Assembly (NCBI GenBank): GCA_018822435.1
Contig: JAHJKD010000003.1
Location: 1,208-65,207 of the forward strand
Length of the DNA stretch: 64,000 nucleotides
Source of the DNA: Patescibacteria group bacterium
GTDB taxonomy: Bacteria; Patescibacteriota; Patescibacteriia; UBA9570; JAHJKD01
Direction: 5' to 3'
Position 1 is the first letter of the stretch. Each line of letters starts with the position of its first letter. This document shows positions 6,635 through 22,739 of the stretch, one piece after another. The notes beneath the pieces were generated by a model, which saw nothing but the letters and a program-made list of their open reading frames with translations, did no database searches and was not told where the DNA came from. Made by a program: the position numbers and the translations under genes.

Positions 6635-6691
6635 AATTTTTAGAGTTTTTTATTAAAAAATTTATTTATTACCTATTAATTAAAATATTTC

Positions 6692-6718
6692 ATATAACGT
6701 TCGTGTGTATGCGATGTT
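6692..6718. repeat. attC-like half-site F (end box plus left arm only)
   Basis: ATATAAC-GTTC-GTGTGTATGCG-ATGTT. Abuts the fic stop codon. Its arm can pair (one G-T wobble) with the arm CGCATACACGC of half-site E at 7638..7648. Confidence 0.5.
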
Positions 6719-7357
6719 TTATTTCTTTTTATTTTTTGAAAGATCTTGAGCCGTTTCTTCCAATGCTGATTTAATTATTGATTGTAACTCTTTAAGATCA
6801 CCCTGGTCAGCGTTTTGTAAAGCTTGAATATATTTTTTCCTTCCGGATTTAGTTTCCACTTTTAATTCCATTGGCGGTAAATTCAGATTCAAGAGAATAA
6901 TATTAATTAACAACCGTCCCATACGGCCATTGTAATCCTGAAAAGGATGAATCCATAAAAATCTATGATGCGCCCAGGTAAGCAGTTCAATTAATTCATC
7001 AAGAAATTTTCCATCATCTATTTTGGGAAGATTTTCCATCCTGACTTTAATATCTTCACACAGATCAATCATTAATTGGGGCACTAAAAAAAATTTTGGC
7101 GGAGTGTGATCAGAAATGTTTACCTCAATTTTGCGGAATTTACCGCCAAATTCAGGAAATATCCAACTAAAACCGACTTGATGTACTTTTTTAAGAAAAG
7201 AGGGAGTAATGGGTATTTTGCCTGATTTATATTTTTCTAAAATAAAATCCCAGGCTTTTTTAATGCCTTCAATTTCAAGGGGTATTAATTTAGAGCGGGG
7301 AATAACGCCAAAAGCAGTTTGCTTGTAGCTCGTTTCGTCTTTTTTCTTCCCGGTCAT
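6719..7357 (-). CDS. fic: Fic/Doc family protein (class I Fic toxin, AMPylation-type)
   Basis: Fic active-site motif HPFQDYNGRMGR (HxFx[DE]xNGRxxR, with Tyr in place of the first Gly). About 210 aa. A small upstream ORF carries an inhibitory motif. Confidence 0.75.
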   Translation of the reverse strand: MTGKKKDETSYKQTAFGVIPRSKLIPLEIEGIKKAWDFILEKYKSGKIPITPSFLKKVHQVGFSWIFPEFGGKFRKIEVNISDHTPPKFFLVPQLMIDLCEDIKVRMENLPKIDDGKFLDELIELLTWAHHRFLWIHPFQDYNGRMGRLLINIILLNLNLPPMELKVETKSGRKKYIQALQNADQGDLKELQSIIKSALEETAQDLSKNKKK

Positions 7358-7359
7358 AA

Positions 7360-7575
7360 TTATTTGGATTTGCTAATGACTTTCTGGACCATCTTTCTCG
7401 TGGTAGTGGGGTTTTCTGTTTTAGTGGTTCGGTAAATCATTTTTTCTTCAAATGCACGAAAATTATCTTGCCGTTCCTGGGAGGAAGATTTCCTATATTT
7501 TTTAAGTAATTTAATGATATTTTGCTTGCTCATATATTTAAAGTATAGCAAAAATACTGAAAAAGTCAATTTCAA
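7360..7575 (-). CDS. FicA/VbhA-like antitoxin candidate (true start probably the internal Met at 7533)
   Basis: Small ORF immediately upstream of fic on the same strand. Contains T-T-K-T-E-N, which fits the Fic inhibitory helix motif (S/T)xxxE(G/N) that class I antitoxins supply in trans. Confidence 0.45.
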   Translation of the reverse strand: MKLTFSVFLLYFKYMSKQNIIKLLKKYRKSSSQERQDNFRAFEEKMIYRTTKTENPTTTRKMVQKVISKSK

Positions 7576-7596
7576 AAATTAAAATAAAAAGAAATA

Positions 7597-7658
7597 AAAT
7601 ATGGGTGAAGTGAGGAGGAGGTACGACGACGAACGGAACCGCATACACGCTGTTAAAC
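7597..7658. repeat. attC-like half-site E (conserved core, right arm and end box)
   Basis: AATATGGGTGAAG...GAACCGCATACACGC-T-GTTAAAC. Its terminal box GTTAAAC is the exact reverse complement of box GTTTAAC at 8241..8247, across the def cassette. Confidence 0.5.
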
Positions 7659-7673
7659 GAAGTCAAGAAAAAT

Positions 7674-8219
7674 CTATGTTATATAATTTATTATTTTATG
7701 AATTACATTGAGCTTCTTTTGATCATACAATTCATCTATTGAAATTAAGTTCTTACAATCCTGAATTCTATCAATATATAAAATAGCATCAAGGTGATCA
7801 ATCTCATGTTGAACTAATCCTGCGAGTTTCCCTGAAAAATTGTACATACATTTTTTGCCTTGATTATTATACGCTTTGATAGTGATTTTTTTAAATCTTT
7901 TAACAAAGCTGCGCAAATAGAAAAAACTAAGGCATCCTTCACGGTTATTGATTAATGCTTTAGACTTTTGAATGATTTGCGGATTGATAAAAATATTAAA
8001 CTTTTCTTGATGATATATAATTATTATACGAACAGGATACCCTAATTGTGGCGCACAGAGCCCATTCCCATGGGAAGATGATATTCTTTTTATTGCCTTC
8101 ATTAATCTGATAATTTTACGAGATATCATCTGGACATCTTTTGATTGAATAGACTTAAGAGGTATCCTTTTAGATTTTTTCCGTAGGATAGGATTACCTA
8201 ATTGAAGAATTTTTTTCAT
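7674..8219 (-). CDS. def: Peptide deformylase, second divergent copy carried as a cassette
   Basis: All three PDF motifs are present: GNGLCAPQLG (motif 1, GxGxAAPQ with A changed to C), EGCLS (motif 2), QHEIDHLD (motif 3, HExxH). A canonical def-fmt pair sits at 59.5-60.9 kb. Confidence 0.8.
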   Translation of the reverse strand: MKKILQLGNPILRKKSKRIPLKSIQSKDVQMISRKIIRLMKAIKRISSSHGNGLCAPQLGYPVRIIIIYHQEKFNIFINPQIIQKSKALINNREGCLSFFYLRSFVKRFKKITIKAYNNQGKKCMYNFSGKLAGLVQHEIDHLDAILYIDRIQDCKNLISIDELYDQKKLNVIHKIINYIT

Positions 8220-8240: not shown

Positions 8241-8334
8241 GTTTAACGTTCCTGGCTATGCGATGTTGCGACCGAAGGGAGCAATATGGGTGAGCTCTCT
8301 CGAAAGAGAGCGAACCGCATAGCCAGTGTTATGT
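8241..8334. repeat. attC-like structured repeat D
   Basis: GTTTAAC-GTTC-CTGGCTATGCG-ATGTT ... AATATGGGTGAG-CTCTCTCGAAAGAGAG-CGAACC-GCATAGCCAG-T-GTTATGT. The 11-bp arms CTGGCTATGCG and CGCATAGCCAG are perfect complements. End boxes fit RYYYAAC and GTTRRRY. Confidence 0.6.
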
Positions 8335-9201: not shown

Positions 9202-9269
9202 ATTTCAAATAATAAATTGCCCCAATAATATACTTTTCTGCGACAGCAGAAAAGGAATTTAATTATTAC

Positions 9270-9396
9270 ACATAACGTTCCTGCGTATGCGATGTTTGCC
9301 AGTGGTATAATTGCACGAAGTGCTTACCACTGGCAAATATGGGTGGAGGCTTGCGGAGGTACGGAGCAAGCCGTAACCGCATACGCAGTGTTAGCT
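9270..9396. repeat. attC-like structured repeat A
   Basis: ACATAAC-GTTC-CTGCGTATGCG-ATGTT-[hairpin GCCAGTGGTA..TACCACTGGC]-AATATGGGTGGAGG-[hairpin GCTTGC..GCAAGC]-CGTAAC-CGCATACGCAG-T-GTTAGCT. Arms are perfectly complementary. The left box is the reverse complement of D's right box. The right box is the reverse complement of B's left box. Confidence 0.65.
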
Positions 9397-9460
9397 GATG
9401 TATTCCTTTTCTTTTCCGACGATAGTCGGTTGTTTTAAAAATTTTCAAATTTCTTTTTCC

Positions 9461-9592
9461 GTTTTGGGTGGTGGGCAGAGGGGAATTAAAGGGGTGAATG
9501 CCCGCCACCCAAAACACCTATTTCTGGTTTGAGGGAGGGGCAAGAGGGGAACAAAAGGGGTGAATTGCCCCGACCGAAAACTCTCTATTCTA
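9461..9592. repeat. Two tandem ~60-bp G-rich hairpin repeat units
   Basis: Unit 1 is GGGTGGTGGGC-AGAGGGGAATTAAAGGGGTGAAT-GCCCGCCACCC-AAAACACCTATTTCT. Unit 2 is GAGGGAGGGGC-AAGAGGGGAACAAAAGGGGTGAATT-GCCCC... The conserved core AGAGGGGAAnnAAAGGGGTGAAT is enclosed by a stem in each unit. Confidence 0.5.
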
Positions 9593-10334
9593 CTTGTCCA
9601 ATCTCTTTTCTGTATAAACAGTAGTCACAATCTTTGTCTGCCTTTGGTATTTTGTCATTTTCCAAGCACTTCTTGATATCTTTTAATGTTTTCTCTACCC
9701 AATCGTCACTTCCGATGTATTCAATAAGGTGAATATCAAATTCTAGTTTTGCATCAAAGGCTTTTTCATCTGGTCGTCCTGTGCAGTATACAAAATAACC
9801 TGTATTTGACATTTTGAGACCGTTTTGGCGTAAGAGCCACTGATATACTTCCATTTGCCTCTTATAGCCGTCCTGCCAGTCTTTATCCAGCTCTGTGACA
9901 GCTTCTGATTTTGCAGTAGCCTTGTAGTCTACAACAATGTATTCCTTTGTTTTTGGATCAAGCCACAAATCATCAATTGCTCCGCTGACGATAAAACCTG
10001 TTGGCTTGTGTGTGCACTCAACGCCTTTAAAGTTTTCTCTCCAAATATCTAGCGATTCGTGGGCTATAGGAATAGCATTAATGCCGTATTGTTTTTGTAT
10101 GGCGTGTTGTTCGCCGTTTGCTCGGTGTGCGTCAAATTCTGTTTTTAGGAGGTTGTCTACCGCGCTATTGAGTGAAAATGGATATCCGGGCGGTCGTTTC
10201 AATCCAAGTTTGTTATCCAAATAAAAACATTTTGGACATTGCTGGAATAAATCTATTTTTGAGCGTGAAAGACGCCAGCGTTTTCCGCCGTAGTTCCAGT
10301 CTGCTTTTCGTGGGATTGAGTAGTAGTCGGACAT
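9585..10334 (-). CDS. PD-(D/E)XK nuclease family protein with four Cys (Cas4/RecB-nuclease-like fold)
   Basis: Motif GAIDDLWLD...EYIVVDYKAT (D ... [D/E]xK). Cys pairs CPKC near the N-terminus and CDYC near the C-terminus suggest a metal or Fe-S site. Confidence 0.5.
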   Translation of the reverse strand: MSDYYSIPRKADWNYGGKRWRLSRSKIDLFQQCPKCFYLDNKLGLKRPPGYPFSLNSAVDNLLKTEFDAHRANGEQHAIQKQYGINAIPIAHESLDIWRENFKGVECTHKPTGFIVSGAIDDLWLDPKTKEYIVVDYKATAKSEAVTELDKDWQDGYKRQMEVYQWLLRQNGLKMSNTGYFVYCTGRPDEKAFDAKLEFDIHLIEYIGSDDWVEKTLKDIKKCLENDKIPKADKDCDYCLYRKEIGQVE

Positions 10335-10364
10335 GAAATTTAATTATTAATTAATATTTATTCA

Positions 10365-11576
10365 TCAAATCAGTTTCTTGGCCTTGCGATACATTTTTTT
10401 ATATGAATTTTCATTCACTTTCCTCAAAAACAATTTAAGGTCATTTTTTGCAATGATTTTATCTCCAAAGTAATACGATAATATCCCACTTCCATAAAGC
10501 AAGGCTGGTTCTTTATTTTTTTGGTATTCATTATTCAAAAATTCTACTACCTCAAGTGGATTAAATCCCAGTCTTTCAACTGGAATTGAAACTAACTTCT
10601 CATAACATTTAAAAGCACTTTTATAATTTTTCTCTAATATCTTAAAAAAGGCTAAATCAACAATTGTAAGCGTAGAGCTGGGGTATTTTTGTTGAAGTTC
10701 AGTTACGACTTTTTGAGCTTCTGCAATTTTTCCTTGTTTATACAAAAATGTAGCTAAATTTGTTAGTGCAAAATGATTATTCACATCGAGTTTCAAAATT
10801 TTATTACAAAATTCAATGCCTTTATTAAAATCTTTTTTATTTAAACCAAATTCAACAACTAAAATTGTATAATCATCAATAAGGTGGATAGCTGTGCTTT
10901 GTATTAAATCATCATTCCTTTTAGCTAGACTGTTATACAAACGTTCTAATAGAGCGATACTCTTACCAATTTTTCCATAAATCTTTAGTGAAAGCGCTAT
11001 TGTATATATTGATAAATCGAAGATATTGTTTGAAACGATTTGAATATCCTCAAATGAGTTATGTTCGATAATGTTCCAGTAATTTTTTCGTGCCATTCTC
11101 GACCTTAAATCTGCCAAAATCATTTTTCCTATTCTCTTTTCCTTATCATCTGGATGACCAAACGTAAAACTTAAATTTAATTTATTTATGTTGTTTCCAT
11201 CTTTTTTTAGGTTATCAACTGTGAAATCTCCCCATATAATCAAATCAATGTCTTTTTTATTTCTAAATTTTTCTGCTTCTTCCTGATTTTTAAATTTTTT
11301 AATATCTGAAAAATCTTGAACAACTACATATTTATCTAAATCTTGTTCTTTTAGGACTTGATTTATGTTTTTCTTTATTTGTTTGAAATAACTTCCAGAG
11401 TTCAAACCTTCATCAAATTCTATAGAAAGAGCGATGTTAAAATTAGCTGGAAACCATTGGAGTTTTCTTGCTCTGAGCCAATTATATAATTGCTTACGAT
11501 AAGTCCAACAGGCAGTCCCCAAGCCCCCTATTATTAGTAATATCAGCCCACTTATTATAGATTCAGTAATTTCCAT
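10365..11576 (-). CDS. Membrane-anchored protein with a C-terminal TPR-like repeat domain (unknown function)
   Basis: N-terminal TM helix (IISGLILLIIGGLGTA). Central domain without known motifs. C-terminal helical repeats of ~34 aa (ALTNLATFLYKQGKIAEAQKVV, AFFKILEKNYKSAFKCYEKLV). Confidence 0.45.
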   Translation of the reverse strand: MEITESIISGLILLIIGGLGTACWTYRKQLYNWLRARKLQWFPANFNIALSIEFDEGLNSGSYFKQIKKNINQVLKEQDLDKYVVVQDFSDIKKFKNQEEAEKFRNKKDIDLIIWGDFTVDNLKKDGNNINKLNLSFTFGHPDDKEKRIGKMILADLRSRMARKNYWNIIEHNSFEDIQIVSNNIFDLSIYTIALSLKIYGKIGKSIALLERLYNSLAKRNDDLIQSTAIHLIDDYTILVVEFGLNKKDFNKGIEFCNKILKLDVNNHFALTNLATFLYKQGKIAEAQKVVTELQQKYPSSTLTIVDLAFFKILEKNYKSAFKCYEKLVSIPVERLGFNPLEVVEFLNNEYQKNKEPALLYGSGILSYYFGDKIIAKNDLKLFLRKVNENSYKKMYRKAKKLI

Positions 11577-11631
11577 AATTTATTTTCATTACATTTTTCG
11601 AATATATTGAATTGTTAAAACCAAAAATATA

Positions 11632-12879
11632 TCATTTTACCAATTCACCACGAAAAGCTTTCCGGAACAGTGATTGTTGAATTTTATCAGTACGACTTTT
11701 AGCTTCTTTATATATATTTCTGGCTTCATTGACTTTACTTTTTATCATAGTTAGACGGTCAACAATCTTTTCTTGCTCCTCAATCGGCGGTAATGCTATT
11801 TGATATGTTTTAATATAATCAGTAGGAACACGAGCTTGACCCGCCGTCCCCGTCATATGTTGTTGCGCAATATGCCTAAAATAATCACTTCTTAAAATTG
11901 AATAAATGAATTTTGCATTTAGTCTGTCTGAGGGTCTAATGACATGAAATTCAGTAGTCCCAAACCCAATTCCATTAACCAAGTTATTAGCAATCGCTGA
12001 TTTACCATTTTCCATACAAGGTGTGATTTTTGCAAACAAGACATCGCCATTCTTGAAATAAGTGTAACCTTTTCGTACTTTTCCAATTTTTCTTATTTCA
12101 GGTGTTTCAATTTTCCCTGTATGCTCGTTTACTGCAGCCATTGGCACAAAACTAACATCTGTATCATCAGAAATATCTTTGACTTCGCTTTTTTTGGGAT
12201 TTATTTCAGCAATATCTTGTAATTCGACCATTTCCCAGCCTTCAGGTAGTACACTTTCATCATCTGGAATAAGCTTATGGAGTGCTGAAGACATTACGTT
12301 GGCTAAACGTATTTCAGCTTCAAAAAGTAATGACGTTGATTTTGTTAAAATACTTTTTGACTCGTTAAGTTTCATTAAAATCTCTTTTTGATTTGGAATT
12401 GGCGGAAGTGGAATTCGAAGATCTTTAATTATCGTTTGGCTTATATTTGATTGCGCCCCACCAAAACCCTTATCAATTAGGTTATCTTTTTCATTTATAA
12501 GATAAATTTTTAAAAAATCCTTTAAGATTTTACTTTCATCTGGAAAGAATGCACAAACGGCTTGGTTTGTTGTAGCTTCTATGCCAAGTTCAGCTGTTTG
12601 ACCAATGTTTGCTCCGTACATAGCCATTAAAAAAGTTCCTTTGGGTAGAATCTTTACGTTACTTGATTTTAAAGCATCTTTTGTGATTTTTTCTTCTGTT
12701 TCAAAAATTATATTTTCTTTTAATTCACCTGATTTTACCCAAGAAATTTTACCATTTTTATAAAATTCTTTATTGTTTCTACTTGGAGTTCCACCACTGG
12801 TTGTCTTACAAACAGTTTTTAGTTCTACCATTTTCCAGCCAGCAGGAAGTTCTATTTCATTATTTTTCATAATATACAT
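11632..12879 (-). CDS. hsdS: Type I restriction-modification specificity subunit HsdS
   Basis: Two target-recognition halves, each ending in the conserved motif LPPIxxQxxI (LPPIPNQKEIL and LPPIEEQEKIV), plus coiled-coil spacers. Confidence 0.8.
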   Translation of the reverse strand: MYIMKNNEIELPAGWKMVELKTVCKTTSGGTPSRNNKEFYKNGKISWVKSGELKENIIFETEEKITKDALKSSNVKILPKGTFLMAMYGANIGQTAELGIEATTNQAVCAFFPDESKILKDFLKIYLINEKDNLIDKGFGGAQSNISQTIIKDLRIPLPPIPNQKEILMKLNESKSILTKSTSLLFEAEIRLANVMSSALHKLIPDDESVLPEGWEMVELQDIAEINPKKSEVKDISDDTDVSFVPMAAVNEHTGKIETPEIRKIGKVRKGYTYFKNGDVLFAKITPCMENGKSAIANNLVNGIGFGTTEFHVIRPSDRLNAKFIYSILRSDYFRHIAQQHMTGTAGQARVPTDYIKTYQIALPPIEEQEKIVDRLTMIKSKVNEARNIYKEAKSRTDKIQQSLFRKAFRGELVK

Positions 12880-12885
12880 AGTTAA

Positions 12886-14244
12886 TTATCCCAATTCCTT
12901 TTGTAAATCTTCTAATTTATCTATCGCTTCTTTTAAAAAGTTTACACTTTCTTCAATTAAAACATTTGGCTCAGGAAGATTTGAGGGGTCATCGAAACTT
13001 TCATCTTTAAGCCATTTTAAATCTAAATTAAAATTTCTTTTTTTCAAATCTTCAAATAGGAATTTCTTCCATCGTTCTGTTTCCTGGTCTCTATTTTGAT
13101 ATTTCTCAAGAAAATCATTAAAGTATTCAGATTTTAGCGGTTTCCTTTTGGAAATTTTTTCTACATTTGTACGCAAGTCGTAAAACCACAAATTTTCTGT
13201 TTTCTCTCCTGTCTTTTCAAAAAAGATAACATTGGTTTTAACCCCAGGCGTATATGGTGTGAATGTTCCGTTTGGTAATCTAATTATGGTATGTAGATTA
13301 AAATTTTCTAAAAGCATTTTTCGTATTTTTGTCCCTGCTCCTCCTTCAAATAGAACGTTGTCTGGCATTACCATCGCACACCGACCACCATTTTTTAAAA
13401 TACTCATACAATGTTGTAGAAAGTTTAGTTGACGACTTTTGGTTACAACAAAAAAATCATCCCTACTATAAGAAACGCTGTTCGTTTTTTTGAAGGGCGG
13501 ATTTGTAAGAATTACATCATACCCATCGCCATACTTTTCTTTCAAAGAATCACCATAGGTAATTTGACCTTCTATTTCATGTAGATAAAGATTCATTATA
13601 CAAAGTCTTCTCGTTTCCCAAACAAATTCACCTCCTGAAATGGCTTCTTTTTGCAAAAAATCATATTCCTCTCTTTTTAAGCTCTTTTTTTCTTTTTCAA
13701 GCTCTTTAAAAATATACTCAAATGCTTCAATTAAGAATCCCCCCGTACCACAGGCAGGGTCATGGATTGTTTCATTGTGTTTAGGGTTTATACATTTAAC
13801 GATTGTTCGAATCAGTTCACGAGGGGTAAAATACTGACCAGCGCCTTTCTGTTCTGCTGCATATTTTGCGAGCAACCCTTCGTAAGCTGCTCCTTTAACA
13901 TCTATATCAATAGAAGACCACTCTTCATCGTCCAAAGCTCCAATTACTTTGTTTAGGCTAACAGGATTTCTAAATTTATTGTTTGATTGAGCAAAAATAT
14001 CTCCAAGCACTCCGGCTTCTTTTCCAAGATTCTTCAAAACTACTTCATAATGCTCAATAAGAGCCATGCCACTATGATTCATTAAAGTTTGCCAACTGTA
14101 TTCACTTGGTATACGAATACCTTTTTCATCAGCCATTTTGAGAAACAGCAAATATGTTAATTGTTCTATATAGTCACCATAATGCATACCTTCATCGTGA
14201 AGATTTCCTGCTAATGACCAAAGTTTTTGTACGATATCTGACAT
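12886..14244 (-). CDS. hsdM: Type I R-M N6-adenine DNA methyltransferase HsdM
   Basis: Motif IV NPPF (ILTNPPFKK). SAM-binding region DPACGTGGFL. N-terminal HsdM helical domain. Confidence 0.85.
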   Translation of the reverse strand: MSDIVQKLWSLAGNLHDEGMHYGDYIEQLTYLLFLKMADEKGIRIPSEYSWQTLMNHSGMALIEHYEVVLKNLGKEAGVLGDIFAQSNNKFRNPVSLNKVIGALDDEEWSSIDIDVKGAAYEGLLAKYAAEQKGAGQYFTPRELIRTIVKCINPKHNETIHDPACGTGGFLIEAFEYIFKELEKEKKSLKREEYDFLQKEAISGGEFVWETRRLCIMNLYLHEIEGQITYGDSLKEKYGDGYDVILTNPPFKKTNSVSYSRDDFFVVTKSRQLNFLQHCMSILKNGGRCAMVMPDNVLFEGGAGTKIRKMLLENFNLHTIIRLPNGTFTPYTPGVKTNVIFFEKTGEKTENLWFYDLRTNVEKISKRKPLKSEYFNDFLEKYQNRDQETERWKKFLFEDLKKRNFNLDLKWLKDESFDDPSNLPEPNVLIEESVNFLKEAIDKLEDLQKELG

Positions 14245-14257
14245 AGTATTTTAGTTA

Positions 14258-16939
14258 TTACATTGGTTGTAAAATATGTTCATTTATACGCTCTAGGGTT
14301 TCATTCAATTTACCTTCAAAATCCCTATTTGCTTTTGAAAAGCCACCCTTTCTACTAAAAGGCAATGAACGAAAATCGCTAGACTCTACAATGATATTTG
14401 TTTCAAGGTGGATTTTTATATCATCAAGCCATTGTTGCTGTGGCTCAGTCTCGCCCTCAAGTAACATTATCTTAAATGCTTTTTCTATACGTTGTCGTGG
14501 TGTATATAATTTTGTATTCCACATGGCGTGTGAAACAAATGCATATAAGTCAGCTGGGGTTTTAGTATGAGTTGCAATTTCATTTGCGCGTCTTAAATTA
14601 TCTTCTGTGAACCGTTCAGGTGTTTTTGCTAATTCATTTTTAAGCTCCTTGAAATGTTTCATTGAAAATTGTCTTGGTGAATTTAAAAGTATTTTAAGTG
14701 CCTCAATTGTCTTAGCATTTTGCTTAATATATTGCTTAAATGTTTCTAAGTAGTCTTTTGGTTTTAATTCTCTTCCGTCTGTAGTTCGAAAAATATATTC
14801 GGAGGTTGCAATTTCTGCCTTTTTTTCTTTAGAAATTATGAAACCTTGCCTGTAACGAGGGTAATTTTGTAAAAATTCAAGAAAATTAGGGTCTGACATT
14901 TGATTTAGAGCTTCTTCTTCTTGCTGAGCAAGCCTATCTTGAATACTTAATGAGAATTCTTGCAAGTTACCATCTGGTACTGCAAAGCGATTTTCAAGTT
15001 CTTTCCTCCCTTCTTCTGTTATATTCTTATCTACTCTTTGCAACTTCCTAGAAAGAGATTTCACGTTATCTTCAATATCTTTTCCATCACGAATTTCTTT
15101 AATGATTTCACCATAAGTCTTTCCAGCTTTCGTAATTGGTTGCATTATATCTCCGCCTTGCTCCTTCATGAAATCTATTACGCCAATAGCATCAAATACT
15201 GTGAAATGAGTTTTGTTAATATCTTTACAAAGCCGTGTGCCTCTACCAATCATTTGTTCGTAAAGAATTCGTGAACGAATAGGTCTTGCAATAAGCAAAT
15301 TTTCAATTGCTGGCACATCAACACCAGTAGAAAGCATATCAACGGTGACAACTATCCGTGGTTTTTTTAGATTTCTAAATTTACGAATTAGCTCATTTGG
15401 CTTATCGACGGTATAAGTTATTTTTTGAACAACATCATCACCTTCACCTAATTCTTTTCTAAATAGCTTTACCAATTGATTTGCATGTCGCTCATTAACA
15501 CTAAAAACTAAAGTTTTCTCATCTTTTCCAATATATTTACAGACTTCTTTAACAATTTTTCGGTTTCTATCTTCAACAGTCACTTTTCTCTCTAATCCGC
15601 TTGTATCAATATGCAAATCATCATCAAGAAGCTCATCTTTATGTTTTTTGGTTTTCCATTCCTCTATTGTAACTCCTTCTCCTTTTGAAAAAGATACTTC
15701 TTCTTTCATATCTATATCTGTTCGTATTCGTACTGCATCGAAATCTACTAAATATCCATCATCTACTGCCTTTAAATAGCCGTAAGAATACAGATCCTTT
15801 TCATCATGAACATCAAAATATGCTGCTGTGTGAGCTGCAGGCGTAGCAGTCAGTCCAAATTGATGTACATCAAAGTAATCCAAGACATATTTCCATTTAT
15901 TATAAATCGATCGATGGCACTCATCAGATATAATTAAATCAAAAGAATCAATTGGAAAATTCTTGTTATATTCAATTGGACTATCATCCCCGTCAGCCCA
16001 TTCATCTTCTGTTTTAACATCTACACCACTATCTCTGCCTTTAAGCATAGAATACAGTCTTTGTATGGTAGATACATAAACAAATGTATTTGATTTCTTT
16101 CTCTTTTTTAATTGTGATGGCTGTAATACCTCAGCATTATAATCAATTTTTTCACCATCTTCAGGCGTTGGTATCTTGTCACAATAGACAGAATATAAAG
16201 TATCAAATTTATTACCTTTTTCAGGTTCAAATGTTGAAAGAGCCGTTACTGTTTGATCTGCTAAACTTCTTCTATCAACCAAGAATAAAATTCTTTTAAA
16301 ATATCCAGACTTCATTAAATGATACATTAAGGCTGAAGCTGCAAATGTTTTTCCCGTACCAGTTGCCATTGCAATAAGCCCCATTCGTTTATTGTTCAGC
16401 AATCTGTTAACAACATATTCTGCGGCTTCTTTTTGATAAAATCTTAAAGCACGGTCGCCGTAAACAGTTTTAATCTCTTCGTTTTGAAGATACTTTATTG
16501 CGTTATTTTTATCTTCGGAAAGTCTTTCTGTTAAACTTTCTGGTGTATGAAAACCTTCAACTGCTCGACTAAAACTAGGTGATTCTCTTAAATTTTGAAA
16601 CCGTATATCTGTACCATTAGAGCTGTATACAAAAGGCACTTTGTAGCTGCCATACTTAGATTCAAAACCTTCTAAATCTTCTGCGTATCGTAAAGACTGG
16701 GTTAATACGCCATCAATTTGAGTTCCTTCCTTTTTTGCTTCAACTACACCTACAGGTTTACCATCAATTGTAAGTAAGTAATCAGCATCACCTGAGCTTG
16801 TAGGATATTCATAAATAGCCTCACAATCACTCCCTTTGATATCCGTTTTTCGCGAGACAACAGACCAGCCTGCTTTTTCAAGCAGTTTATCAATTTTTTC
16901 TGAACGTGTTTTTGATTCTTTAGGCATATTAAATTTCAT
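14258..16939 (-). CDS. hsdR: Type I restriction enzyme HsdR (helicase/nuclease subunit)
   Basis: Walker A MATGTGKTF and DEAH-box DECH (SDECHRS). N-terminal PD-(D/E)XK-type nuclease region. 893 aa. Confidence 0.85.
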   Translation of the reverse strand: MKFNMPKESKTRSEKIDKLLEKAGWSVVSRKTDIKGSDCEAIYEYPTSSGDADYLLTIDGKPVGVVEAKKEGTQIDGVLTQSLRYAEDLEGFESKYGSYKVPFVYSSNGTDIRFQNLRESPSFSRAVEGFHTPESLTERLSEDKNNAIKYLQNEEIKTVYGDRALRFYQKEAAEYVVNRLLNNKRMGLIAMATGTGKTFAASALMYHLMKSGYFKRILFLVDRRSLADQTVTALSTFEPEKGNKFDTLYSVYCDKIPTPEDGEKIDYNAEVLQPSQLKKRKKSNTFVYVSTIQRLYSMLKGRDSGVDVKTEDEWADGDDSPIEYNKNFPIDSFDLIISDECHRSIYNKWKYVLDYFDVHQFGLTATPAAHTAAYFDVHDEKDLYSYGYLKAVDDGYLVDFDAVRIRTDIDMKEEVSFSKGEGVTIEEWKTKKHKDELLDDDLHIDTSGLERKVTVEDRNRKIVKEVCKYIGKDEKTLVFSVNERHANQLVKLFRKELGEGDDVVQKITYTVDKPNELIRKFRNLKKPRIVVTVDMLSTGVDVPAIENLLIARPIRSRILYEQMIGRGTRLCKDINKTHFTVFDAIGVIDFMKEQGGDIMQPITKAGKTYGEIIKEIRDGKDIEDNVKSLSRKLQRVDKNITEEGRKELENRFAVPDGNLQEFSLSIQDRLAQQEEEALNQMSDPNFLEFLQNYPRYRQGFIISKEKKAEIATSEYIFRTTDGRELKPKDYLETFKQYIKQNAKTIEALKILLNSPRQFSMKHFKELKNELAKTPERFTEDNLRRANEIATHTKTPADLYAFVSHAMWNTKLYTPRQRIEKAFKIMLLEGETEPQQQWLDDIKIHLETNIIVESSDFRSLPFSRKGGFSKANRDFEGKLNETLERINEHILQPM

Positions 16940-16957
16940 TACATTGTTCTGATTGTT

Positions 16958-17173
16958 CTAACCCTGATTTTCAGGTGAACTTTTTTTCAAGAATGTTATT
17001 ACGTCTTTCTTGTGATAGCGTCTTGGCTGCGTATCACTTGGACGAAAGGCTTTAAGTAGTCCTTTATCGTCCCAACGTCTTAATGTCATAAGAGAAACTT
17101 GTAGTATATCTGCAACTTCCCGAAGGGATAGTATTTCCGGCATATCCTTTAATTGGTCTACTAGGTTTTTCAT
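16958..17173 (-). CDS. Small HTH DNA-binding protein (MerR/excisionase-type helix-turn-helix)
   Basis: 71 aa. LSLREVADILQVSLMTLRRWDDKGLL is a typical excisionase/MerR-family HTH. Located between the GmrSD-like gene and hsdR. Confidence 0.5.
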   Translation of the reverse strand: MKNLVDQLKDMPEILSLREVADILQVSLMTLRRWDDKGLLKAFRPSDTQPRRYHKKDVITFLKKSSPENQG

Positions 17174-17183
17174 AACAATAAAA

Positions 17184-19250
17184 TTAAGAAGAATGCTTAT
17201 TAAGTGATTGCTGTATTAAGAAAATGGCATAATCAATCTCCTCAGGCTCAGATAAGCTTACTTCTACATCTCCATTTCCCCAGCGTCCTAAATCCGTAAC
17301 ATCTTTTGCCATTCCTTTTGGGTCATCAAGTTCCTCAAATTTCATATTTAGAGAAAGTCTTAATCTGGTTTTTTGAGGGACAACATCTACAAAGTTTGTT
17401 GAAGTTTTGAAAGCTATGTAGAGCTTCATACATTCTTCTCTAATCTCTGGATTTAAAAGCATGATTCGCTCTTTTAATAGCTCGTAGAGAGTGAACATGT
17501 CGCCTTGTAGGTATTCATAATCTTCAATGTTGTAATCAGCTTCTTTTTCTGGTTGTAAGTCTTTTTTGTACTTCTCCAATATCTCATCAGATAAAACTGG
17601 AGCTTTCCAGATTTGCAGGGCTTCTTTGCTTAGAGTTTCGGCTCGTTGTTTAATCGTTTCTTCATTCCAAGTATCAAGGTCTATTAAATCTTTATTTAAA
17701 CGCACAGAGCTTTCTTTAAATCCTTTCTGCATATCTCTTTTTTCTGTGAACGATTTATTACTCATATCAGAGTTGTACCCCGTAAGAGTAAGATTTCCGA
17801 TAGTGTGCAAATACTCACTTTGGATTCTCTGGAAGTCCTCTCCAAGTGCTTCCTTCCATTGAGGGGTTAAGGTTTGAGGCATGATATGCTCAACGCTCAA
17901 ATCATCAAGATTTACTCGCTCTTTATTGTTGTGGTGTTCAATTTTCTCGAAGAGATAACCGCTATTTCTGAAATTGTAAACATCTTTCTTGGCTAGCTCC
18001 TCCTTAAATTCACTATCCTTAGGAAGTCGGTGATAGCTCTCTCGTAGTATGAAATTAGCCATGAGGCTTTCAATGTAATTCTCTGGCTCGATTTCTTTGT
18101 AGAGGTTCGCAAAGGTCTTATTAAGGGAATTGGTAGGAATACCACAAATAGCACGTCTAAAGACGTAGCATTCAACCAGTTTGAGAACTTCAATGAAATC
18201 TTCCTTTGTGATTATGTTGTTTTCGTAATCATCATAAACACTCATCAGGAATGGGTAAGCTACCTCAACCTTTAGAGTTCTGATGTTGTTAATTATCTCG
18301 TTTATTTGATTGTCTTCTTCTTTGTTAAATTCAAGTTTGGCGTAGTACTTTGAAAACTTGTGGACGTCTGCCACTACCTCTTCAATTTCTCTTCCGAAAA
18401 TATACTGCTTGTATGTTGTGTAAACTGAATCTAGGGTTGGGATTGAGCCTGTTTTGATAGTAAGGAAGCCACGCATGAAGTAGTCAAACTTTTCTTCATT
18501 TTGACCTTCGATAAAAAGGCTCTCCATTGGTAGCCAATACTTGGTGTAAATTTCTTTCTGATGGTCTGGCTCAAGCCCCATGAGAACATAATTCCTAATA
18601 AGGTCAGATTGAGACAAATCCAGTCCGGTAGAATTAAGACTTTCAAAAATAAGCTGAGGGTTGTCCTCTCTATCTAATGCAATATCAACAATGATAAGTT
18701 TTCGTATTCCTTTGAATAAATCATCAAGGTTAATGTTGCCTTTTTCTATTTGAGTAACAAAAAATAGGTAATTTTGGTAAATACGTTCGATTTCTTCATC
18801 TTTTGATATTTCTTCACCATCAACCAATTTTCTAAATACTTCTTTGTCATGTCGTGTAAGGCTTAGTTTAATTCGTTTATCATCTTTACTGTACTCATTC
18901 ACAAGGAAAGAGTTCATGATTTGACGTTTTGTAACCTCGTATTTCTCCTCCGATTTCTTCAAGGCATTCACCATTGCCAAGAAAAGCAATGACAGGGTTG
19001 TCAGTCTCTGCTGTCCATCAATTACAAGAGCCTGATTTGTACCTGCGATGTTATACATGCCAGCGGCTACATAAACGACCGAACCTATAAAGTGAGCAGG
19101 AACTGTATCATCAGTCGAAACTCGCAAAATATCATTCCAAAGTTGCTTACATTGGATTAAATTCCAGCTATAGGTACGCTGATAAATGGGAATAATGAAC
19201 TGCTGTTCTTTATTGATGAACGATATAAAATTGGTTTCTAATGCCTTCAT
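17184..19250 (-). CDS. GmrSD-like type IV (modification-dependent) restriction endonuclease, DUF262 plus DUF1524/HNH
   Basis: N-terminal DUF262 motifs YQRTYSW and IDGQQRLTTL (ParB/Srx-like NTPase). C-terminal His-Me finger LSVEHIMPQ (DUF1524). 688 aa. Confidence 0.75.
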   Translation of the reverse strand: MKALETNFISFINKEQQFIIPIYQRTYSWNLIQCKQLWNDILRVSTDDTVPAHFIGSVVYVAAGMYNIAGTNQALVIDGQQRLTTLSLLFLAMVNALKKSEEKYEVTKRQIMNSFLVNEYSKDDKRIKLSLTRHDKEVFRKLVDGEEISKDEEIERIYQNYLFFVTQIEKGNINLDDLFKGIRKLIIVDIALDREDNPQLIFESLNSTGLDLSQSDLIRNYVLMGLEPDHQKEIYTKYWLPMESLFIEGQNEEKFDYFMRGFLTIKTGSIPTLDSVYTTYKQYIFGREIEEVVADVHKFSKYYAKLEFNKEEDNQINEIINNIRTLKVEVAYPFLMSVYDDYENNIITKEDFIEVLKLVECYVFRRAICGIPTNSLNKTFANLYKEIEPENYIESLMANFILRESYHRLPKDSEFKEELAKKDVYNFRNSGYLFEKIEHHNNKERVNLDDLSVEHIMPQTLTPQWKEALGEDFQRIQSEYLHTIGNLTLTGYNSDMSNKSFTEKRDMQKGFKESSVRLNKDLIDLDTWNEETIKQRAETLSKEALQIWKAPVLSDEILEKYKKDLQPEKEADYNIEDYEYLQGDMFTLYELLKERIMLLNPEIREECMKLYIAFKTSTNFVDVVPQKTRLRLSLNMKFEELDDPKGMAKDVTDLGRWGNGDVEVSLSEPEEIDYAIFLIQQSLNKHSS

Positions 19251-19369
19251 AATTGAAATTTAATTAATTTTCTCAGGTTATACAAAGTATTACAAAGTTA
19301 GTATAACAATTCTAGTGTTTTTCACAAGAGAATGAAGGGAAGAGAAGAGCTGTATATTATAAAGAGTTG

Positions 19370-19500
19370 TTCCGCCGATAGGCGGAACTCCATATATTCC
19401 CCTCATTAAAAAAGCGTTTCCGTAGCGTAGCGGAGGAAACACCATATTTCCCCTTATAAATAAATCGTTTTCGGAGCAAAGCGGAGAAAACACCTTATAT
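19370..19500. repeat. Three tandem ~45-bp hairpin repeat units
   Basis: Units are GTTCCGCC-GATA-GGCGGAAC-TCCATATATTCCCCTCATT, GTTTCC-GTAGCGTAGC-GGAGGAAAC-ACCATATTTCCCCTTAT and GTTTTC-GGAGCAAAGCGGAG-AAAAC-ACCTTATATCCACTC. Hairpin stems differ between units but the tail nCCATATnTCCCCT is conserved. Confidence 0.5.
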
Positions 19501-19582
19501 CCACTCTAAAAATAAAGAAAAAGAAATTTGAAAATTTTTTAAAACAATTGGGCGATAGCCCAGAAAAGAAAAGGAATATTTC

Positions 19583-19697
19583 AGCTAACGTTTCGGCATA
19601 TACGATGTTGCACGGGTGTATAATAGCCGACAGGCTACACCCGTGCAATATGGGCGGAGCGACCATCGGGAGCGTAGCCGTATATGCCGTGTTATAT
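19583..19697. repeat. attC-like structured repeat B
   Basis: AGCTAAC-GTTT-CGGCATATACG-ATGTT-[hairpin GCACGGGTGTA..TACACCCGTGC]-AATATGGGCGGAGC-...-CGTATATGCCG-T-GTTATAT. Arms are perfect complements and covary relative to A and D. The left box is the reverse complement of A's right box. The right box is the reverse complement of C's left box. Confidence 0.65.
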
Positions 19698-20870: not shown

Positions 20871-20912
20871 GGTGCGAAATATTAAAAATTAAAAATTTTG
20901 ATAAATTATTTC

Positions 20913-21001
20913 ATATAACGTTTCGGCATAGCCGAAGTTTGACGGGTGTAAAATACGCCGAAGGTGTACACCCGTCAAATTTGGGTGAGCGAGCGTTAAA
21001 A
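20913..21001. repeat. attC-like structured repeat C (variant)
   Basis: ATATAAC-GTTTCGGCATAGCCGAAGTT-[hairpin TGACGGGTGTA..TACACCCGTCA]-AATTTGGGTGAGCGAGC-GTTAAAA. The left arm self-pairs here (TTCGGC-ATA-GCCGAA). Confidence 0.5.
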
Positions 21002-21021
21002 ATAAAATTGTTTTTATTCGT

Positions 21022-21462
21022 TTAGAATAATAACTTGTATGTTACTCCTTCTTTCCATTGTGGATTTTCCCATTCTTTGAAATCAAAATTTTCACATAGA
21101 TTTCGCATAGGAGAATTTTTAAAAGCGGTTTCTGTAACAACTCCTGTAGCTTTTTTGTTTTTTGCGTGTTCAATACATCTACCCATCAGTTTTTTTCCTA
21201 TACCAAGCTTTTGAAAATATGGATCAACGAGTATTTCACGGATGAAAAAGAAATTGTCTTCCCACCAACCTCTGTCTATAGAACAAAAAGCCACAAATTC
21301 AGCTCCTTTCTTTGCGATAAGATAAAGGCTATCTTTTAGCTGAAAGTGTTTTTTTAGTGAATCTATTGTGGCTTTGTCGTAGGTATAATTGAAAGATTTT
21401 TTATTACGTAAAAAATCAATTTCTTTTTCATTTTTCATCTCTGTAATTTTGATTTCATCCAT
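21022..21462 (-). CDS. GNAT-family N-acetyltransferase
   Basis: Acetyl-CoA-binding motif A QKLGIGKKLMGRCIEHAK (Q/RxxGxG/A). About 145 aa, the typical size for a single GNAT domain. Confidence 0.75.
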   Translation of the reverse strand: MDEIKITEMKNEKEIDFLRNKKSFNYTYDKATIDSLKKHFQLKDSLYLIAKKGAEFVAFCSIDRGWWEDNFFFIREILVDPYFQKLGIGKKLMGRCIEHAKNKKATGVVTETAFKNSPMRNLCENFDFKEWENPQWKEGVTYKLLF

Positions 21463-21483
21463 AGAATTAAAACAATTTTATTT

Positions 21484-21513
21484 AGCTCGCGAACCGGCTA
21501 TGCCGTGTTAGCT
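21484..21513. repeat. Truncated attC-like site G (arm plus end box only)
   Basis: AGCTCGCGAACCGGCTATGCCGT-GTTAGCT. Resembles only the right arms of A, D and E. Box GTTAGCT is the reverse complement of AGCTAAC at 21783..21789. Confidence 0.45.
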
Positions 21514-21521
21514 GAAGTTAA

Positions 21522-21752: not shown

Positions 21753-21917
21753 ATAGAAAAATAATTAATTTCAGCTAACTGGTTATTATACGAAGTGTTT
21801 TCATATAATATGCATGATTTAGGGTGTTATGCGGCTATTGCGGAGAAGGGAAGATTGCTGTAATATTTTAAATAACATCCTAAAAACATCTTCTAATATA
21901 CTTAAAATTCATCAATT
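21753..21917. promoter_or_regulatory. attI-like region and divergent promoter zone between the recombinase gene and the first cassette
   Basis: Contains box AGCTAAC (21783..21789) complementary to the first cassette's GTTAGCT, a TCATATAA element resembling the starts of repeats C and F, and a GTTATGC box (21836..21842). AT-rich with several -10-like hexamers. Promoter positions were not resolved. Confidence 0.4.
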
Positions 21918-22739
21918 ATGCAAGATTACCTCAAAAAGGCAAAGGAAGAGCTTTTGGTTCGGAATTATAGCCAAAAGACTATTAAAAGTTATACTTCTTG
22001 TTTGCGGAACTATTTTGAATATTTAGATTCTGTTGGTTTTGATTTGGGAGTGGTGGACAGGGAAGTGATAAAAAAATTCTTATTAAAGAAAAAGGGGAAA
22101 GGGTATTCACCACAAACTTTGAATCTTTTTCTCAATGCGATTAAATTTTTTTATAGAGAAATTATTAAATCACAGGAGGAAATTGATTTGAAGTTTTCCA
22201 AACGGTCGCAGAAATTGCCGGTGGTGCTATCGCGCAATGAAATCCAGCTCATCCTAGATGAGGTCGCTAATTCCAAACATAAGCTGCTGATCGGGTTGAC
22301 TTATGGGGCAGGCTTAAGGGTGAGTGAAGTCATAAATTTGAAGGTCAGGGACATTGACTTGGAGAGAGGAGTAATTGCTGTCCGAGCCGGGAAAGGGGAT
22401 AAGGATAGGATCACGGTTTTGCCTGAAAAATTATCGTCTGAAATAATGGCTAGGATAAGGGGAAGGAGTGGGCCGGAGTTTGTTTTTGTCAGTGAACGGG
22501 GCGGACGGTTGACAGCAAGAACAGCACAGAAAGTATTTGAAAATGCTTTGCGGAAGGCAGGGATCCAAAAAGATGCCACTTTTCATTCATTGCGCCATAG
22601 TTTTGCGACTCATTTACTAGAGAGCGGGACGGACATCAGATATGTGCAGACATTGTTGGGACATCGCAATATTCGGACCACGCAAATTTATACCCAGGTG
22701 AGCACGGCTAATATCAGGGCCATTGCCAGCCCGCTATAA
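21918..22739 (+). CDS. Site-specific tyrosine recombinase (XerC/XerD/IntI superfamily), the presumptive cassette integrase
   Basis: C-terminal catalytic region with R (LRVSE), K (GKGDKDR), HxxR (HSLRHSFATHLL), R and Y (HRNIRTTQIYTQV). N-terminal core-binding domain. Only 273 aa, and the segment between the KxxR box and HxLRH is ~58 aa, too short for the IntI-specific insertion. Confidence 0.85.
   Translation: MQDYLKKAKEELLVRNYSQKTIKSYTSCLRNYFEYLDSVGFDLGVVDREVIKKFLLKKKGKGYSPQTLNLFLNAIKFFYREIIKSQEEIDLKFSKRSQKLPVVLSRNEIQLILDEVANSKHKLLIGLTYGAGLRVSEVINLKVRDIDLERGVIAVRAGKGDKDRITVLPEKLSSEIMARIRGRSGPEFVFVSERGGRLTARTAQKVFENALRKAGIQKDATFHSLRHSFATHLLESGTDIRYVQTLLGHRNIRTTQIYTQVSTANIRAIASPL

Follow-up and report, generated by a model that had tools for sequence, protein, structure and literature searches.

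In the genome of a Patescibacteria group bacterium, an ultra-small member of the candidate phyla radiation (CPR), we found a block of 10,313 bp that probably represents one giant cassette in an integron-like array. The stretch analysed comprises 64,000 nucleotides (nt) of contig JAHJKD010000003.1 (assembly GCA_018822435.1, positions 1,208 to 65,207) and is called the window in the following; within it, the block extends from 9276 to 19588 and forms the third cassette of a five-cassette chromosomal array. It is one cassette-like unit that carries at least two recognised defence systems, i.e. a GmrSD type IV enzyme and a complete type I restriction-modification (R-M) system, together with two more genes. 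The array as a whole contains five cassettes, five 5' halves and five 3' halves of attC-like recombination sites and one attI, located next to the gene of a Xer-type tyrosine recombinase.

Boundaries and interior of the block

The block is bounded by two attC-like sites, both found on the + strand with a covariance model and with hidden Markov models (HMMs) of the half-sites. The site at 9270–9396 (site 3; 116 bits with the covariance model, half-sites at 9263–9301 and 9365–9403) is the giant cassette's own recombination site, a three-way-junction hairpin with the minus (gene) strand order R'' AGCTAAC ... R' GTTATGT. The site at 19583–19697 (site 2; 114 bits) is part of the upstream DUF711 cassette and gives the boundary G|TTAGCT. 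The single-strand folds of both sites lie well below those of shuffled controls (z = −6.3 and −6.9 for sites 3 and 2, respectively). An earlier first-pass annotation, made from the sequence, had described matching outer boxes at the ends of the block, and we indeed find them mutually matching at 9390–9396 (GTTAGCT) and 19583–19589 (AGCTAAC). As an outer boundary these boxes hold, while the real extent of the match is larger: each of the 7-nt boxes is the outermost part of a ~75-nt terminal inverted repeat (9390–9465 versus 19515–19589), the ends of what we call the chassis of the cassette. Complementarity between the two arms is 93% for 9390–9416/19563–19589 and 96% for 9433–9459/19517–19543. 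The left arm begins at GTTAGCT and encloses a small hairpin (9416–9429), and the right arm, the 5' end of the cassette on the gene strand, ends in AGCTAAC.

Adjoining the right arm are three tandem leader hairpin modules of ~50 nt each (19365–19514), which occur in one to three copies in other CPR cassettes. On the opposite side, 3' of the last gene, there are two tail hairpin modules (9461–9581) with 17-bp GTTTT...AAAAC stems and the conserved loop GAGGGGAAnnAAAGGGGTGAAT; these are likewise found in five other loci (L047, L073, L078, L033 and L052). A promoter-like site on the minus strand (19300–19327; TTGTGA, a 16-nt spacer, and TG before TATACT) is situated ~50 nt upstream of the GmrSD gene. 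As a side observation, each of the 75-nt arms contains a 5-bp hairpin followed by a T-rich run (9416–9429 and 19549–19562); the stems of the two hairpins differ by compensatory changes (CCGAC/GTCGG versus TGGGC/GCCCA), and both look terminator-like and point into the cassette.

The matching of boxes across a cassette is obeyed by all five cassettes of the window, with the inverted repeat extending over 22–36 nt in each. For 55 cassettes of related genomes the inverted repeat has a median length of 9 nt (75th percentile 27), compared to a median of 5 for control pairing. Each of the five window cassettes has an R'' that pairs with the R' tail of the site before it; many of the 55 family cassettes follow this rule too, and as a set they exceed the control pairing. 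We also noted that the outer arm has a conserved 2-nt asymmetry at all cassette ends (window 9397–9401 versus 19578–19582; family consensus): the bases after R' read GATGT, while those preceding R'', taken as their reverse complement, read GAAAT. On the + strand the opposed bases are T-G and T-T; the minus strand has C-A and A-A. The asymmetry may mark the strand that is used.

Between the bounding repeats the first-pass annotation had seen no other attC-like site. We checked this for degenerate internal sites in two ways, and the statement withstood both. The covariance model was trained on the five sites of the window, and genuine sites score at least 60 bits with it; when the block interior (9397–19582) was scanned with filters off, the top match reached only 19 bits (9442–9566, within the tail hairpins), and the remaining internal matches had E-values of ~1 or worse, resembling the background elsewhere in the window. 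The half-site HMMs, built for the 5' half and the 3' half from 67 and 76 family sites, respectively, recover exactly five 5' halves and five 3' halves across the window; within the block, none of their matches falls below E = 8.8. Moreover, the intergenic gaps of the block measure 6–55 nt and are devoid of TAAC/GTTA features, so that there is no room for a site between the block genes. Searching the whole window against Rfam at gathering thresholds gave no match.

Recombinase, attI and the site family in CPR bacteria

The recombinase gene (21918–22739, + strand, divergent from the array) encodes a Xer-type tyrosine recombinase of 273 aa. The protein scores 229 bits with the XerA model NF040815 (recomb_XerA_Arch), above the cut-off of 220, but only 216.7 bits with the integron-integrase model TIGR02249, below the cut-off of 265 and with the match in two stretches. 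Its nearest solved relative is XerA of P. abyssi (4a8e). Aligned to VchIntIA (2a3v), it is interrupted at chain residues 177–244, where ~43 residues are absent that correspond to the IntI-specific insertion. In classical integrons, this insertion contacts the extrahelical bases of attC. Because the recombinase lacks the IntI-specific domain, we do not file the system as a classical integron. The label of integron cassette used in the first-pass annotation is thus right as far as an integron-like array is concerned, and too narrow in that a Xer-type recombinase without the IntI insertion and a dif-like attI do not make a classical integron. A Xer-related recombinase subgroup named 'Cand' is merely mentioned by name in the literature (PMC8138268).

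The attI, on the minus strand (21768–21796; ACTTCGTATAA-TAACCAG-TTAGCTGAAAT), is a dif-like core site of the Xer type and precedes the recombinase start by 123 nt. It adjoins the divergent recombinase gene, and the cassette array lies on that side only. In 57 of 69 CPR loci, the consensus TTCG(C/T)ATA(A/G)AAACGA|GTT(A/G)nnn(G/A)AAAT lies 85–135 nt ahead of the recombinase start; it fits the layout of a Xer core (~28 bp, two 11-bp arms around a central region of 6–8 bp). The two arms agree with published XerC/XerD sites, the pdif oligonucleotides ACTTCGTATAATCGCCATTATGTTAAAT and ATTTCGCATAAGGCGTATTATGCGAAAT (ODN3 and ODN4 of PMC7399989). The attC-like sites resemble the attI as well: the 3' half, continued into the beginning of the following cassette, gives CCnnATAtnCngTG|TTAnnnGATGT, and the 5' half is the inverted partner of the 3' half with three extra bases, so that the folded site imitates dif with a bulged central region. 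A short palindrome (ATACGAA-AACAC-TTCGTAT) often precedes the attI core (window 21768–21807).

To describe the site family, we used a sample of 80 CPR loci (L005–L084) that carry a homologue of the recombinase, and searched it with the five-site covariance model. In 41 of these loci, 92 further attC-like sites were detected, all of them upstream of the recombinase and on the same strand, and none downstream. Such a site is present in 33 of the 39 loci that have at least 2 kb of upstream sequence. In 32 of the 80 loci the contig leaves <1 kb on the upstream side of the recombinase gene. The arrays thus seem to break metagenome-assembled genomes (MAGs) systematically, and the variable gene and cassette content of CPR genomes is probably under-represented in MAGs. 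Contigs of other assemblies end at the cassette junctions of the window as well, at 9421/9431, at 19591 and at 21776, the last of these being the end of contig L002 within the TTA of the attI.

In an alignment of 96 sites, 94.6% of the cells are paired, as compared to 31–45% with slid partners, and 719 double changes are found; as the sites had been aligned with the model itself, the pairing statistic is biased towards the structure, but the margin is large. Two nearly invariant G-T pairs are possible only on the + strand, i.e. antisense to the cassette genes, and this strand also folds better than the minus strand, which agrees with the bottom-strand rule of integrons. The structure of the attC-like sites is under selection, with strong covariation. 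Taken together, the sites show the anatomy of attC: structured imperfect palindromes with R'', L'', L' and R', AAC...GTT cores and covariation.

Gene content of the block and of its sister cassettes

Seven minus-strand genes had been named for the block, and domain models, PADLOC models and the sequence itself bear out the identity of each. The first in the direction of transcription encodes a GmrSD-family type IV enzyme of 688 aa (17184–19250), in which GmrSD_N, GmrSD_C and a C-terminal DUF5655 are combined; the DUF262 (PF03235, E = 3.7e-36) and DUF1524 (PF07510, E = 1.7e-25) parts reside in a single polypeptide. Between this gene and hsdR lies the gene of a 71-aa helix-turn-helix (HTH) protein of the HTH_17/MerR/excisionase type (16958–17173; PADLOC mad1, E = 4.8e-11), possibly a controller. 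The type I R-M set follows, with HsdR, HsdM and HsdS all present at full length: the restriction subunit HsdR (14258–16939) has a ResIII helicase and EcoEI_R_C, the methyltransferase HsdM (12886–14244) matches PF02384 (E = 9.8e-71) and PADLOC MTase_I (E = 1.1e-162), and HsdS (11632–12879) has two target-recognition domains (PF01420, E = 3.3e-43, in two stretches; PADLOC Specificity_I, E = 9.6e-94). The remaining two genes encode a tetratricopeptide repeat (TPR) protein of 403 aa with a hydrophobic N-terminal helix (10365–11576), recognised by domain search, and a Cas4-like PD-(D/E)XK nuclease (PDDEXK_1) of 249 aa (9585–10334; PF12705, E = 4.6e-14; PADLOC Cas4 models) with the Cys pairs CPKC and CDYC. 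Type I R-M systems cut unmodified foreign DNA and type IV enzymes cut modified DNA; the two together would give complementary cover against both.

Some further assignments were considered and rejected. The nuclease is not a CRISPR-associated Cas4, as it reaches only 29.9 bits with TIGR00372 (cut-off 65) and neither cas genes nor a CRISPR array are found nearby. MADS was rejected since there are only mad1-, mad2- and mad5-like matches rather than the full mad1–mad8 set; the mad2- and mad5-like matches (HsdM and HsdS) are weaker than those of the type I models on the same proteins. The TPR protein belongs to a small, mostly CPR family whose members stand alone in other defence or mobile contexts, and as its homologues are found without the Cas4-like nuclease, the two do not form a fixed pair.

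With regard to size, the distance between adjacent detected sites gives a median cassette length of 1,062 nt (95th percentile 3,060; n = 55). The half-site HMMs applied to 208 loci, a sample enriched for chassis-type cassettes, give a median of 1.19 kb (n = 88), and here the cassette of the window is the maximum with 10,199 nt, followed by cassettes of 8,307, 6,418 and 5,507 nt. The first-pass annotation had called a size of ~10 kb unusual; it is the largest measured, and it is not unique, since cassettes of 9.2, 8.3, 7.5 and 6.4 kb exist. The end modules of the block recur with 90–100% identity in CPR genomes whose recombinases are only 55–62% identical, and the 23-nt leader GTTAGCTGAAATATTCCTTTTCT is present in >120 metagenome contigs. 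Carriage of the sites by phages was rejected, as 2.9 million viral contigs gave 0 matches to the chassis leader and to a generic 5' half-site pattern. We found 41 cassettes with both chassis ends, including that of the window, which range from 0.1 to 10.2 kb (median ~2.5 kb). The larger ones combine e.g. type I R-M with an AAA_15/21 ATPase and DUF2130 (L107, 9.2 kb), type III R-M with a KAP NTPase (L047, ~7.5 kb), a helicase-nuclease with DUF2130 (L111, 6.4 kb), or methyltransferases with a DpnII-like enzyme and GmrSD (L073, 5.4 kb); ABC transporters, radical SAM enzymes and surface proteins are further chassis cargo. Big multi-gene cassettes, often with defence genes, are therefore recurrent, and that of the window is the extreme case.

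Origin and proposed movement of the block

The composition of the block is not uniform: G/C content is 31–34% across 10–17 kb, as opposed to 37–42% in the flanks. The GmrSD gene with its promoter-like region (17179–19328) shares 85% DNA identity with a non-array locus (L220) from which attC halves and a type I system are both absent, and a GmrSD homologue with 70% identity is part of a chromosomal island with the order HTH-hsdR-hsdM-hsdS-GmrSD-DUF5655 (L216). The DUF2779 protein next after GmrSD in that island has no significant homology to the nuclease of the block. On account of these two loci and of the TPR homologues that stand alone, we regard the block as a mosaic assembled in a conserved chassis, in which independent modules would have accumulated, i.e. 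GmrSD-DUF5655 with its own promoter, HTH with hsdRMS, the membrane TPR protein and the Cas4-like nuclease.

The array consists of the recombinase gene, the dif-like attI and then cassettes transcribed away from the attI, each ending in an attC-like site of ~95–125 nt. As for the movement of cassettes, the strand antisense to the cassette genes would fold each of these sites into a hairpin, in which the outer arm TTAnnnGA[T/A][G/A]T, the bulged 6-bp central region and the inner arm jointly imitate dif. Acting on this folded single strand, the recombinase presumably moves the cassettes by exchanging one strand at G|TTA, with the attI or with another site, so that a cassette would move as [TTAxyz...genes...attC...G]. 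Excision of the whole unit would leave the empty site ATTATTACACATAA|CGTTTCGGCATATACGATGTTGCACGGG (window 9275 joined to 19589), and the junction of the excised circle would read GGAATATTTCAGCTAA|CGTTCCTGCGTATGCGATGTTTGCC (19588 joined to 9276). We give this hairpin-Xer mechanism roughly even chances; support for excision and integration by the recombinase is indirect and comes from the contig breaks at junctions and from cassette ends shared between genomes. That the block moved as one unit, as the first-pass annotation had it, is inferred.

Several observations weigh against this reading. With ~60% identity to a ~270-aa protein that occurs throughout CPR MAGs, the recombinase could be a mere housekeeping Xer, and the absence of the IntI insertion makes hairpin recombination here an analogy. 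Exact-protein look-ups with the end genes of the block and with two neighbouring cassettes gave no sign of a circular form, of an empty site or of the block at another place; they returned only 100% identical contigs of the same population, broken at cassette junctions. The left junction (9421–9431) is spanned by the assembly of the window alone, the anti-phage role of the block genes is predicted from annotation, and the local GC skew turns from negative to positive near 21.5 kb, unlike at a terminus. We also noted that the minimum of the cumulative GC skew at ~21–22 kb coincides with a divergence of gene orientation, which is origin-like, but foreign cassettes distort the skew; an origin-like skew at the attI is unexpected if the attI doubles as chromosomal dif.

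The most serious rival explanation concerns the nature of the sites: the repeats might be double-stranded Xer/dif-type sites, and the array a pile-up of elements at chromosomal dif, similar to integrative mobile elements exploiting Xer (IMEX) or to pdif modules, without any hairpin step. This agrees with the outcome of the XerA and integrase models for the recombinase, with the resemblance of the attI and of each 3' half-site plus cassette start to XerC/XerD core sites, and with the inverted dif-like halves that flank the cassettes as in the pdif modules of Acinetobacter. However, it leaves unexplained why the inner stem and two further hairpins covary so strongly and why there are G-T pairs possible on one strand only, and the origin-like rather than terminus-like skew does not fit either, so we consider it rather unlikely. 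Less probable again is a fusion of former cassettes with deletion of the internal sites, which would make the block a historical composite not captured as one unit. The modules do have separate histories, as seen from the relation of GmrSD and its promoter to L220, from the lone TPR homologues, from the difference in G/C content between 10–17 kb and 17–19 kb, and from the close GmrSD homologue in L216 beside a different type I system and in another gene order. Against a fusion, no half-site remnant in the interior scores better than the E = 8.8 mentioned above and the gaps are too small for a site; also, the homologous modules elsewhere lie outside arrays and without sites, which argues for accretion by ordinary recombination in the chassis and not for cassette fusion.

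Finally, we considered the block as a non-autonomous transposon-like element whose ~75-nt terminal inverted repeats target attC/attI boundaries, with a transposase acting in trans. Conservation of these repeats at 90–100% across distant CPR genomes with variable cargo would suit such an element, and so would the breaks of assemblies within the repeats. Yet neither the block nor the other chassis cassettes examined contain a transposase, no target-site duplication is evident, and the repeats start exactly at the GTTA/TAAC boxes. Enough flank was available for 119 leader copies. The attC hallmark CCCAWATT is found no more than 200 nt away from 52 of them, and many of the remaining copies that were read by eye (without a systematic count) come after the attI-like TTCGyATAAnAAyGA or other attC-body sequence. 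The outer-arm motif GTTAnnnGATGT/GAAAT is, in addition, common to cassettes without the chassis. We judge a transposon-like element to be very improbable.

The reading of the block as one giant cassette can be compared to several known systems. It shares with sedentary chromosomal integrons (e.g. the Vibrio cholerae superintegron with its VCR attC sites) the divergent tyrosine recombinase, the neighbouring attI and the co-oriented, promoterless-looking cassettes, as well as end sites that are imperfect palindromes with AAC...GTT cores, a box complementary across the cassette and a bottom strand that folds better. Unlike in those integrons, the CPR recombinase lacks the ~43-aa IntI insertion, the attI is dif-like, the sequence of the sites is conserved over a phylum-level radiation and not just within species, the stems run 20–75 nt past the R box, and cassettes of up to 6–10 kb carry complete multi-gene systems. 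CTX-phi reportedly (Val et al. 2005) integrates at dif with the help of XerCD, its attP being a hairpin folded from a single strand. Elements of this IMEX type likewise have two inverted dif-like half-sites tens of nt apart; one strand folds to give a substrate for Xer in which the central region is imperfect, the enzyme is of the Xer family and the target is dif-like. In contrast, the CPR system, known from sequence alone, has a single recombinase instead of a XerC/XerD pair, and promoter-poor gene cassettes arrayed beside its gene instead of phage genomes. The pdif modules of Acinetobacter (PMC7399989) are similarly flanked by inverted Xer-type core sites with nearly the same arms (ACTTCGTATAA and TTATGnGAAAT-like), but are plasmid-borne, use 28-bp double-stranded sites without hairpins and do not lie beside a recombinase gene. 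Defence islands with type I R-M and GmrSD, such as L216, have the same gene families and the same combination of cutting unmodified and modified DNA, whereas here these are packaged between recombination sites and joined by the TPR protein and the Cas4-like nuclease.

In classical integrons defence cassettes are reported to be streamlined, with no long loci among them (10.1101/2024.07.02.601686). A 10.3-kb cassette with type I R-M, a type IV enzyme and two more genes runs against this picture of size-limited, miniaturised defence cassettes, and the sister cassettes of 6–9 kb indicate that large size is a habit of the system and not an accident. The platform itself is possibly more important than the cassette. 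We tentatively propose, with slightly less than even confidence, a CPR-wide 'Xer-integron' made up of a short Xer-type recombinase, a dif-like attI and dif-mimicking hairpins, which would stack cassettes including defence islands of 5–10 kb, would be intermediate between Xer/dif (or CTX-type) recombination and classical integrons, and could represent a major, under-assembled exchange platform. If active, it would provide a testable model for the origin of integrons from Xer recombination and a route of gene flow in CPR bacteria, and would explain the contigs ending shortly upstream of the recombinase gene (32/80). We found no account of such CPR arrays in literature whose coverage lacked most subscription journals, so that an earlier description is possible; the Xer-type integron-like system of CPR bacteria is apparently undescribed so far.

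As in sedentary chromosomal integrons, the cargo of the array in the window includes a toxin-antitoxin system (Fic), an acetyltransferase, a peptide deformylase and the defence genes. The deformylase, encoded by the cassette at 7674–8219, is an accessory peptide deformylase (TIGR00079, 109 bits, above the cut-off). According to a recent report, accessory deformylases are reportedly carried on mobile elements, and this cassette would fit. Besides the two sites that bound the giant cassette, the attC-like sites of the window lie at 6691–7658, 8241–8334 and 20913–21513, again on the + strand and found with the covariance model and the half-site HMMs. The first and the last of these are split (regions 6685–7663 and 20906–21520): they hold whole genes in the loop of a variable hairpin closed by inverted repeats of 20–22 nt, namely a Fic open reading frame (ORF) (6719–7357) together with a 71-aa ORF (7360–7575) in the first and a GNAT ORF (21022–21462) in the last. 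The entry of genes into such split sites is not accounted for by exchange at G|TTA. Among the paired half-sites of the family, 16 of 134 span >250 nt, some of them being mis-pairings, and the split arrangement with similar junction sequences occurs again in four other loci (L066, L161, L062 and L169).

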